A DNA stretch of 64,000 nucleotides, from NCBI GenBank assembly GCA_017983435.1, contig JAGOBM010000002.1, positions 33,414 through 97,413 on the forward strand. The letters are read 5' to 3'. Positions 50,438 to 51,547 of this stretch are shown one piece after another. The stretch's first letter is position 1. Each line of letters starts with the position of its first letter. This DNA is from Candidatus Moraniibacteriota bacterium (GTDB taxonomy: Bacteria; Patescibacteriota; Minisyncoccia; Moranbacterales; UBA1568). Position numbers and translations under genes: made by a program. The notes below the pieces were generated by a model. It saw only the letters and a program-made list of their open reading frames with translations, had not been told where the DNA came from and made no database searches.

Positions 50438-50616
50438 CGCGACGATTGTAGATTTAAGATTTTCGATTTTAGAATAAATACTCAGGTGTCATTCCGAGCG
50501 TAGTCGAGGAATCTAATGAACAGTAGATTTCTCGAGAGGCTCAGAATCAGTTGTTTGGAAAAAAGAAAAGCCCCGGCGCAGTTGCGACGAGGCTGATAGG
50601 TTGGCTAAGTTGCCGA

Positions 50617-50835
50617 TTACTTTTCTGGTTTTCGTGGTTGATTTTCGAATAGCCGGATAATGTTGGTGAAAAAAGTACCAACGAGGATGACGGAAATAAT
50701 TCCGATAACAACTATTCGAAACCAGAAGACTTCTGAAGTGGTGCTGAAAGCATGCAGGAAGATGAGTATCGGTCCAAAAAGAAGACTGGAAATAAAGACG
50801 TAGCCAGCGCTTAAGCAGTACAAGAACGATTTCAT
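50617..50835 (-). CDS. Small membrane protein (72 aa, 2 TM) in the AT-rich insertion
   Basis: It is a hydrophobic ORF on the opposite strand within the low-GC segment 50440-51547. Confidence 0.35.
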   Translation of the reverse strand: MKSFLYCLSAGYVFISSLLFGPILIFLHAFSTTSEVFWFRIVVIGIISVILVGTFFTNIIRLFENQPRKPEK

Positions 50836-50950
50836 GGCAGTTCTCCCGTTGGTTGTTAAGAGTACAAATTAATATGATAGCATAAAAAATAGAAAAAGTC
50901 AATATTGTATAACGTTATTAACCAGTATTTTCCTTTAATCAAGCTAAAAT

Positions 50951-51481
50951 ATGCCGGAAAAGGCAGCGAAAAATCTGGTAGCGATTCCGAATGAGCGCAT
51001 CGAAAAGCGGATTTTTTGGCTGCGCGGGGAAAAGGTGATGCTTGATGCCGATTTGGCAGAGTTGTATGATGTATTGACCGGAAACCTGAACAAAGCGGTC
51101 AAGCGTAATATCGATCGGTTCCCATCCGATTTTATGTTTCAGTTGAACAAGGCGGAATTTGATGGTTTGATGTTCCAAAATGGAATATCAAAAGGGCGAG
51201 GCGGGAAAAGAAAGCTGCCGTACGCTTTTACCGAGCAGGGTGTGGCGATGCTCTCGAGCGTATTGAAGAGCCAGCGGGCAGTAGCAGTGAATATCCAAAT
51301 TGTCCGGACATTCGTAGAGCTGCGGAAGATGCTCGCAACGCATGAAGGACTGAGGAAGAAGATCGAGGCGATGGAACGGAAGTATGACAAACAGTTCAAG
51401 GCGGTATTCGATGTGTTGCGGCAACTCTTGAAAGAAGAAACGGAGCCGAAACAGAAGATCGGATTTGCTATAAAACAGTAG
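50951..51481 (+). CDS. ORF6N-domain (KilA-N-related) DNA-binding protein
   Basis: LRGEKVMLDADLAELYDV...NKAVKRNIDRFPSDFMFQLNKAEF...GKRKLPYAFTEQGVAMLSSVLKSQRAVAVNIQIVRTFVELRK is the characteristic ORF6N signature. Its stop codon lies inside a GAATA-family repeat. Confidence 0.75.
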   Translation: MPEKAAKNLVAIPNERIEKRIFWLRGEKVMLDADLAELYDVLTGNLNKAVKRNIDRFPSDFMFQLNKAEFDGLMFQNGISKGRGGKRKLPYAFTEQGVAMLSSVLKSQRAVAVNIQIVRTFVELRKMLATHEGLRKKIEAMERKYDKQFKAVFDVLRQLLKEETEPKQKIGFAIKQ

Positions 51482-51545
51482 AATATGGAGTGTAGAATAT
51501 GGAATGTAGCTGAACTATATTCCATATTCTAAATACTATATTCTC
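51479..51545. repeat. GAATA-family inverted-repeat element immediately upstream of atpD
   Basis: The arms are TAGAATATGGAGTGTAGAATATGGAATGTAG (51479-51507) and CTATATTCCATATTCTAAATACTATATTCTC (51516-51545). Confidence 0.6.
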
Positions 51546-51547
51546 AA

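Follow-up and report, generated by a model that had tools for sequence, protein, structure and literature searches.

We analysed a stretch of 64,000 nucleotides (hereafter, the window) from a genome of Candidatus Moranbacteria (Patescibacteria; candidate phyla radiation, CPR) and focused on an ORF6N-domain gene that lies inside the operon for the F-type ATP synthase. The exact ORF6N protein carries the name of this organism in NCBI, and the nearest atpG loci are those of metagenome-assembled genomes of Moranbacteria. The operon is on the + strand and reads atpB-E-F-H-A-G (45803–50437) followed by atpD-C (51548/51557–53397); relative to the canonical F1Fo order atpBEFHAGDC, all eight subunit genes are complete, ordered and on the same strand, and the sole departure is a spacer of 1.1 kb between atpG and atpD. 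This spacer holds two open reading frames (ORFs), i.e. the ORF6N gene for a protein of 176 amino acids (aa) on the + strand and a 72-aa ORF with two hydrophobic segments on the − strand. The G+C fraction of the spacer is 0.43 compared with 0.58–0.60 in the atp genes, and the G+C fraction at third codon positions (GC3) of the ORF6N gene is 0.60 compared with 0.72–0.78 in atpA, atpG and atpD, supporting that the spacer DNA is accessory and not native atp sequence. To this extent the original prediction, which had been made from the letters of this DNA, was borne out: it had described an AT-rich insert of ~1.1 kb that separates atpBEFHAG from atpDC and encodes an ORF6N protein on the + strand and a 72-aa protein with two transmembrane (TM) segments on the − strand. 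The coordinates of these and all other features are collected in Table 1.

The ORF6N gene lies between atpG and atpD in a clade of Moranbacteria

Six public contigs have the identical locus. Among ~30 atp loci of reference genomes of Moranbacteria/Patescibacteria (individual loci and genomes carry L numbers, homologous proteins P numbers), an ORF6N gene was found behind atpG in one only (L007), while 17 had an atpG-atpD spacer of >200 nt with varied small cargo. The close homologs P0007 (81% identity), P0014 and P0015 (76%), P0020 (70%), P0023, P0024, P0025, P0010 and P0060 are all encoded between atpG and atpD and co-oriented with the operon, and a neighbour-joining tree of 120 homologs groups them with the window and L007 proteins in one clade. 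In this closest ORF6N clade, 11/11 examined members, all from Moranbacteria, have the gene in this position and orientation, and the placement is therefore old. In most relatives, the ORF6N gene starts 29–90 nt behind atpG. The identity of atpG among the ORF6N-carrying lineages is only ~70–95%, and the comparisons indicate that the ORF6N gene has been at this site since before the separation of lineages whose synonymous divergence (dS) is now saturated. In the next clade out, the copy in L175 is not linked to atp genes and adjoins an integrase gene and a gene for a NACHT-domain protein; L087, a more distant Moranbacterium, also has an ORF6N gene in the atpG-atpD spacer, but its protein groups in this outer clade.

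These observations bear on the reading first given to the locus, namely that a phage-derived or integrative element inserted recently into the atp operon of this genome. The low G+C fraction of the insert, 256 matches of the protein to IMG/VR viral contigs and repeats at the insert edges are consistent with such an event. However, at least 11 lineages, between which dS is saturated, share the gene and its location; identity to the best viral match is only 56%, and the repeats belong to a dispersed hairpin family (see below). Moreover, neither a recombinase, integrase or transposase gene, as would be sought near a mobile element and as the original prediction had proposed to look for, was found in the insert or in the scanned flanking genes (~37.3–45.6 kb and 53.7–62.8 kb, with some short ORFs unscanned), nor was there a target-site duplication or a flanking direct repeat beyond the heptad arms described below. 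The spacer thus has no recombinase, no element-specific terminal repeats and no target-site duplication by which to assign it to a transposon, insertion sequence, miniature inverted-repeat transposable element or integrative element. The window contains no tRNA gene usable as an integration target, and Rfam searches returned only a transfer-messenger RNA (tmRNA) outside the spacer at gathering thresholds over the whole window, and nothing credible in the spacer at permissive E-values over 49400–51650. Conserved synteny largely refutes a recent insertion as judged from the sequences, and we give this explanation hardly any credence.

ORF6N alleles are patchily present and decoupled from their flanks

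The ORF6N-negative loci L008–L012 and L015 are interleaved with ORF6N-positive ones in a tree of atpA, atpG and atpD. A direct comparison is provided by L015 and L087, the flanks of which share 88–95% nucleotide identity, while only L087 has the ORF6N gene and a small − strand gene. The alleles that are present do not follow their hosts. L169, the closest genome, is 95%, 94% and 97% identical to the window in the aa sequences of atpG, atpA and atpD, respectively, but its ORF6N protein is only 76–77% identical; the most similar allele (81%) is that of the more distant L167. Similarly, dS between the window and L169 is 1.72 for ORF6N compared with 0.64 for atpG and 0.65 for atpD. Over nine lineages, ORF6N distances did not correlate with those of atpG+atpD (Mantel test, r=0.10, p=0.34), while atpG and atpD distances, as a control, did (r=0.90, p=0.0002). 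Finally, GC3 of the ORF6N genes spans 0.48–0.65 while that of the host atp genes spans 0.47–0.87.

Because the ratio of nonsynonymous to synonymous divergence (dN/dS) of the ORF6N gene is 0.07–0.16, comparable to atpG, the gene is functional and under purifying selection. No mosaic recombination tracts were found at the 3' end of atpG or the 5' end of atpD; because no other genome is closer to the window than L169 anywhere in atpG or atpD, any breakpoints of exchange lie inside the spacer. The original prediction had itself named a conserved atpG-ORF6N-atpD order across the whole clade as a sign of an old domesticated gene. The conserved order was largely found (11/11 of the ORF6N clade) and the placement is old; however, presence is patchy rather than clade-wide, and the phylogeny of the gene is decoupled from that of its flanks. 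The losses in sister lineages, and distances that do not track those of the flanks, indicate that this is not a simple vertically inherited domesticated gene.

The ORF6N protein matches a candidate phage-defence family

The window protein fits the Pfam ORF6N profile (PF10543) over positions 2–86 of 86 (E=7.7e-33; 113.1 bits; gathering cut-off 27.8). Its N-terminal domain is in this respect like other ORF6N/KilA-N-type proteins, and the PHROG "anti-repressor" families match the same region; for example, family 4792 (E=1e-25) covers only the N-terminal half, at positions 14–130 of 268. Proteins with such DNA-binding domains were reportedly classified by Iyer, Koonin and Aravind in 2002. No full-length match to Rha/anti-repressor proteins was found, as the scores for Pfam Phage_pRha (22.2 bits; cut-off 29.9) and NCBIfam TIGR02681 (20.1; cut-off 45.95) were below the cut-offs. 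Unlike ORF6N/KilA-N-type proteins of phages, the window protein is short, solitary and chromosomal, has a conserved helical C-terminal part, and is encoded outside a phage regulatory region. In this C-terminal part, E142, Y145, D146 and a terminal IGF are conserved. An AlphaFold model (mean predicted local distance difference test score 74.6) predicts a compact N-terminal domain of alpha/beta type and, behind it, long helices at the C terminus; no solved structure was matched significantly by sequence or fold.

The protein also matches the PADLOC profiles of PDC-S05, a single-gene phage-defence candidate (PDLC04869, E=2.3e-57; PDLC04856, E=1.3e-56; PDLC04849, E=8.3e-39). The window protein matches this family over its full length, aligning to the full 177-position profile PDLC04856 (positions 6–174) and to the first 175 positions of the 306-position profile PDLC04869. 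One representative of PDC-S05 lowered the plating of T7 and T5 ~1000-fold in E. coli, and the protein tested carried a Virulence_RhuM domain (bioRxiv 10.1101/2024.09.26.614923). In a Pfam scan, the window ORF6N protein has no RhuM domain. A further difference from PDC-S05 is that the window copy lies in a CPR housekeeping operon and not in a defence island.

The ORF6N family is very large, comprising 32,497 clusters (50% identity) at E≤1e-3 and 1,056 at E≤1e-30. It is highly conserved over its full length across phyla, and the window protein is 60–68% identical to homologs in Nitrospirae, Thermodesulfovibrionales, Ignavibacteriales and Desantisbacteria. ORF6N proteins had been described in the original prediction as typical of phages and integrative elements. 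This holds insofar as the family is widespread and also occurs on viral contigs; the subfamily of the window protein, however, is present in only 5/50,697 phage records, all of them unannotated contigs named "Bacteriophage sp." that derive from human faecal metagenomes, and in 25/72,556 plasmids. The neighbours of 70 distant homologs comprise 97 Pfam families, including specificity subunits of type I restriction-modification systems, tandem copies and the arrangement dnaN-ORF6N-gyrB; none is a conserved partner. Solitary homologs (~61% identity) are found between dnaN and gyrB in L088 (3538–8384) and L089 (1955–6651).

The small − strand gene is a module of its own

From an alignment of modules at seven loci, we derived the anatomy of the small − strand gene. 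It has a conserved, near-consensus promoter (TATTGACTTTTT-N-TATTTTTTATGCTATAAT), a conserved 5' untranslated region (UTR) with a GGAG ribosome-binding site, and a terminator composed of a hairpin and a U-tract, with promoter and terminator each present as single copies in the window. By contrast, the coding part is poorly conserved; it encodes 59–87 aa, nearly always with two hydrophobic segments, and the ORFs of relatives are unrelated to that of the window. The terminator is 87–97% identical in the L168 and L173 modules (97.5% over 40 nt for L168) and 83% identical in L007, while coding DNA is only ~75% identical. Among 5.8 billion sequences, the 72-aa ORF had no homolog but itself. In a comparison with type I toxins, the hydrophobic segments and the separate promoter and terminator are present, and neither an antisense RNA nor an Rfam family was detected.

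The order in most relatives is atpG-ORF6N-module-atpD, while in the window and L173 the module is upstream of ORF6N. We considered circular permutation or a circular intermediate for the swapped gene order; this is unneeded, as L173 has a block on both sides of ORF6N, such that duplication and differential loss suffice. L010 has the − strand block and no ORF6N gene, and L179 has ORF6N and no block. Because each occurs without the other, the small gene is a module independent of ORF6N.

This independence weighs on the idea of a two-gene system, for example a DNA-sensing ORF6N regulator with a membrane-disrupting abortive-infection effector, or a toxin-antitoxin pair. The two genes adjoin each other in most relatives and are divergent neighbours in the window and L173, and the small protein is hydrophobic and toxin-like with a strong promoter of its own. 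Against this stand L010 and L179, the variable order and spacing, a block in L168 that carries a non-membrane ORF, the single-gene nature of PDC-S05, and the homologs elsewhere that have no conserved partner. A two-gene system is, in our estimate, very improbable.

Other atpG-atpD spacers in Moranbacteria also have cargo, and several hold small − strand membrane ORFs. The spacer of L022 contains a 98-aa ORF (7107–7403), GIY-YIG-like by eye only; that of L029 contains an unscanned 137-aa ORF (6984–7397) that may be NUDIX-like; and that of L027 contains a 2.3-kb stretch with several small ORFs (6955–9244). We also note that the L167 contig (CAYPAD010000001.1; 468–760 and 2443–4024) has a second small-gene block between atpH and atpA, and a DUF6973 gene and a 129-aa ORF between atpA and atpG; its atpA match ends at residue 469 of 499.

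A conserved leader precedes ORF6N or atpD

Adjoining the module promoter is a leader of ~45 nt with the direct repeat TTAATCAAG-N8-TTAATCAAG right before an ATG. It precedes ORF6N in the window and L173 and atpD in L168 and L179; a fuzzy search found it in these four ORF6N-positive lineages and in no ORF6N-negative locus. The leader could be an operator or a translation signal. As another operator candidate upstream of ORF6N, the palindrome ATAACGTTAT was dropped because it is not conserved in L173.

The leader would have a place in a model in which the ORF6N protein is a domesticated, dedicated transcription factor of the ATP synthase operon that binds, e.g., the TTAATCAAG-N8-TTAATCAAG leader and tunes atpDC relative to atpBEFHAG. 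The fixed position and orientation in 11/11 lineages, purifying selection on the gene, and the restriction of the leader to ORF6N-positive lineages all support this model. However, close sister lineages do without the gene, its alleles are decoupled from host phylogeny and base composition, near-identical architecture (55–68% identity) is found in unrelated contexts in many phyla, and the leader was detected in four lineages only. We therefore consider a dedicated regulator of this kind unlikely.

Heptad-periodic hairpins are dispersed in the genome

Two inverted repeats of the GAATA family, located by the original prediction at 49466–49541 and 51479–51545, had been taken to bracket the insert. 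Because the first copy lies between atpA and atpG, and hence upstream of atpG, the pair does not bracket the insert; instead, each repeat is self-complementary and folds on its own. That repeats flank the insert is loosely true only in that a degenerate heptad arm (~50446–50480) lies at the left edge of the gap, while the GAATA pair consists of dispersed hairpins. The motif family has 17 matches in the window compared with 0.27 expected by chance, with other copies at ~4.9–5.0, 29.0, 33.7, 38.8, 41.3 and 44.4–44.5 kb. The heptad unit is lineage-specific (GAATATG in the window, GTATCTC in L179, CATGTTC in L167, and GGAATCT in L168 and L181), although the positions of the hairpins behind atp genes are kept among relatives, and the hairpins are also found behind atpA and atpG and in ORF6N-negative genomes. 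The hairpin in front of atpD has no U-tract and is, for this reason, not a canonical terminator.

We conclude that the heptad hairpins are general genome furniture resembling repetitive extragenic palindromic (REP) sequences and not the termini of an element; as to their nature, they could be REP-like elements or protein-binding arrays. Like REP sequences and bacterial interspersed mosaic elements, they are scattered through the genome, fold strongly and are found mostly between genes, at gene 3' ends. In contrast to these, the arms are built of 7-nt periodic units that vary in sequence between related genomes, and one GAATA copy is in frame inside tatD. In this in-frame copy, both arms (44400–44497) lie within a TatD-family ORF (44197–45219), and because its 340-aa protein compares with a Pfam profile of 253 positions, the repeat seems to be tolerated as a coding insertion. 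The ORF6N protein as a binder of the heptad hairpins was considered and rejected, as the units follow the host lineage and are present in the ORF6N-negative L009 and L010. A different hairpin behind atpG (50484–50550; GTCATTCCGAGCG...CGAGGAATC...CTCGAGAGGCTCAGAATC) has counterparts in L169 (4897–4975) and L007 (~3640–3715); its translation seems to resemble the short tails that often adjoin GIY-YIG genes in CPR and Bacteroidota genomes.

With the hairpins described, we can weigh whether the ORF6N gene is a selfish cassette that inserts repeatedly into the spacers of conserved operons (atpG-atpD, dnaN-gyrB) by a trans-acting or otherwise unrecognised site-specific mechanism; in a variant of this idea, the spacer hairpins might be recombination sites, like integron attC or REP elements. 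Several observations point in this direction: the ORF6N phylogeny is decoupled from the flanks with breakpoints confined to the spacer; the L087 protein groups with the sister clade that includes the non-atp copy of L175, hinting at a second acquisition at the site; L088 and L089 have their homologs between dnaN and gyrB; the hairpins are usually 3' of the gene; and conservation of the short spacer modules far exceeds that of coding DNA. On the other hand, no recombinase or nuclease domain was found in the protein or in the scanned neighbours, the hairpins are not restricted to the spacer or to ORF6N-positive genomes, their sequences track the host lineage and not the ORF6N allele, and the neighbour-joining placement of L087 is weak. 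As for attC, there is a hairpin behind the ORF; however, no R' or R'' boxes (RYYYAAC...GTTRRRY) were seen by eye in 51480–51550, and no integrase gene is present in the scanned flanks. A site-targeting cassette is, accordingly, an explanation that we doubt.

Table 1 Coordinates of the features at the ATP synthase locus and of related elements. Positions refer to the window unless a relative is named.
Feature	Position	Strand	Remarks
atpB	45803–46558	+	
atpE	46735–46962	+	
atpF	46988–47437	+	
atpH	47467–47868	+	
atpA	47943–49442	+	
Heptad-periodic GAATA hairpin, atpA-atpG spacer	49467–49540		Free energy −24.8 kcal/mol, z −5.0
atpG, F1 gamma subunit, left flank of insert	49547–50437	+	PF00231, E=2.4e-86
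atpG-atpD spacer	50438–51547		1,110 bp
Degenerate heptad-repeat arm	50446–50480		Right behind atpG stop codon
Hairpin element GTCATTCCGAGCG...CGAGGAATCTAA...TAGATTTCTCGAGAGGCTCAGAATC	50484–50550		Single copy in window; L169 has counterpart at same position
Intrinsic-terminator-like hairpin and U-tract of small gene	50553–50594	−	Free energy −16.1 kcal/mol
72-aa ORF, two hydrophobic segments	50617–50835	−	Orphan by sequence
Conserved 5' UTR and promoter of small gene	50836–50904	−	5' UTR with GGAG ribosome-binding site, 50851–50868; near-consensus promoter TTGACT-17-TGCTATCAT, 50874–50904
Conserved leader (TTAACCAGT-N8-TTAATCAAG...ATG)	50905–50950	+	
ORF6N-domain protein, 176 aa	50951–51481	+	N-terminal ORF6N/KilA-N-type domain, then conserved helical C-terminal part
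Heptad-periodic GAATA hairpin, ORF6N-atpD	51480–51544		Free energy −31.2 kcal/mol, z −8.1
atpD, F1 beta subunit, right flank of insert	51548–52942	+	GTG ORF start 51548; ATG 51557 in public gene calls
atpC	52957–53397	+	
Intergenic 7-nt-periodic hairpins, window	4930–5037, 29007–29034, 33743–33764, 38804–38831, 41290–41318, 49467–49540, 51480–51544		
Intergenic 7-nt-periodic hairpins, relatives	L179 4480–4540; L167 ~800–870 and 5535–5610; L168 5525–5590; L181 4431–4500; L009/L010 ~6925–7000		
Leader copies	Window 50905–50950; L173 4955–5000; L168 6010–6056; L179 4545–4589		

Further genes were noted around the operon. In the window, atpC is followed by the genes for S6 and SSB. The gyrB ORF (55982–58420) encodes 812 aa with the ATPase domain starting only at residue 162, reflecting either an N-terminal extension or an upstream TTG start called too early. 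The tmRNA gene (18287–18686, − strand; Rfam RF00023, 110.8 bits) was found with Rfam, while ARAGORN gave no tRNA or tmRNA in the window. In L169–L172, 2 kb downstream of atpC (~9.2–10.5 kb), a bAvd-like gene is paired with an RVT_1 reverse transcriptase gene; the pair looks like a diversity-generating retroelement.

Discussion

We favour, as probable though by no means assured, the explanation that the ORF6N gene is a selected and exchangeable accessory cassette, possibly for defence, that has long resided in a hotspot formed by the atpG-atpD spacer in a clade of Moranbacteria. The spacer would be a long-standing hotspot for small accessory modules, two of which, independent of each other, are present in the window. 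One would be the solitary, intact ORF6N/KilA-N-type gene of the PDC-S05 family, under strong purifying selection, with a presumed DNA-binding function and a helical C-terminal part that may serve oligomerisation. The other would be a self-contained − strand unit composed of a strong promoter, a conserved 5' UTR, a fast-evolving mini-protein with two TM segments and an intrinsic terminator. Because the alleles form one clade of which every examined member is at this site, the ORF6N gene most likely entered the spacer once, early in the clade. Subsequently, the gene appears to have been lost in some lineages and alleles to have been exchanged between lineages, with breakpoints in the spacer and not in atpG or atpD. 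We suggest that the ORF6N gene, having no mobility machinery of its own, is passively carried and moves by recombination within the spacer among related Moranbacteria. Its product is most likely an oligomeric DNA-binding factor that would interfere with phages or mobile elements or serve as a regulator; we regard a part in ATP synthase biology as less probable.

The same arrangement would have consequences for expression of the operon, which may be split into two units. Transcription of atpBEFHAG would end convergently against the small − strand gene, and ORF6N-atpD-atpC would be expressed either from the conserved leader beside the divergent small-gene promoter or by read-through. The terminator of the − strand gene has no U-tract on the + strand, and the hairpin before atpD likewise has none. 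In most relatives, in which the gap is 29–90 nt, ORF6N is probably co-transcribed with atpG.

Several points weigh against our explanation. The assignment to defence rests on a match to hidden Markov models, and the PDC-S05 protein that was tested had the RhuM domain that the window protein lacks; the genes around the insert are all housekeeping genes with no defence island. The trees were built by neighbour joining from ~175 residues, and most pairs are close to saturation in dS. That site and orientation are so strictly conserved would be consistent with a function linked to the operon, too. Finally, no + strand sigma-70 promoter was found by scan in 50836–50950 or before atpD, and reading by hand was unconvincing.

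Hotspots for accessory or defence genes between conserved core genes have been described for enterobacterial genomes. The atpG-atpD spacer is like these in its fixed site, variable presence, swapped alleles and atypical composition. It differs from them in being part of an essential operon, where it separates two subunit genes of a single enzyme, and in that the cargo is tiny (0.2–2.3 kb) and exchange is apparently confined to the spacer. A stronger version of our explanation is that the spacer is a dedicated cassette site where species draw on a common pool of ORF6N (PDC-S05-type) alleles; exchange would be independent of the flanks and would proceed via the conserved spacer modules, i.e. heptad hairpins, terminator, promoter and leader blocks, with no known recombinase. 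We advance this only tentatively and would put its chances low; if true, it would represent a minimal mechanism for cassette exchange or the parking of defence genes in an essential operon of a streamlined genome.

We conclude that the locus is intermediate between an "insertion" and a "domesticated gene", with a member of a known, abundant family in an unusual, new context inside the ATP synthase operon. In the tiny genomes of CPR bacteria, few defence or accessory loci have been recognised. Here, a selected accessory gene of a candidate anti-phage family has long been retained in one of the most conserved operons in biology, and its history is not coupled to that of the flanking genes. Should the mechanism of exchange or the role in defence prove true, the atp operon of this clade would be transcriptionally split, and streamlined symbionts would keep a flexible gene pool without classical mobile elements.

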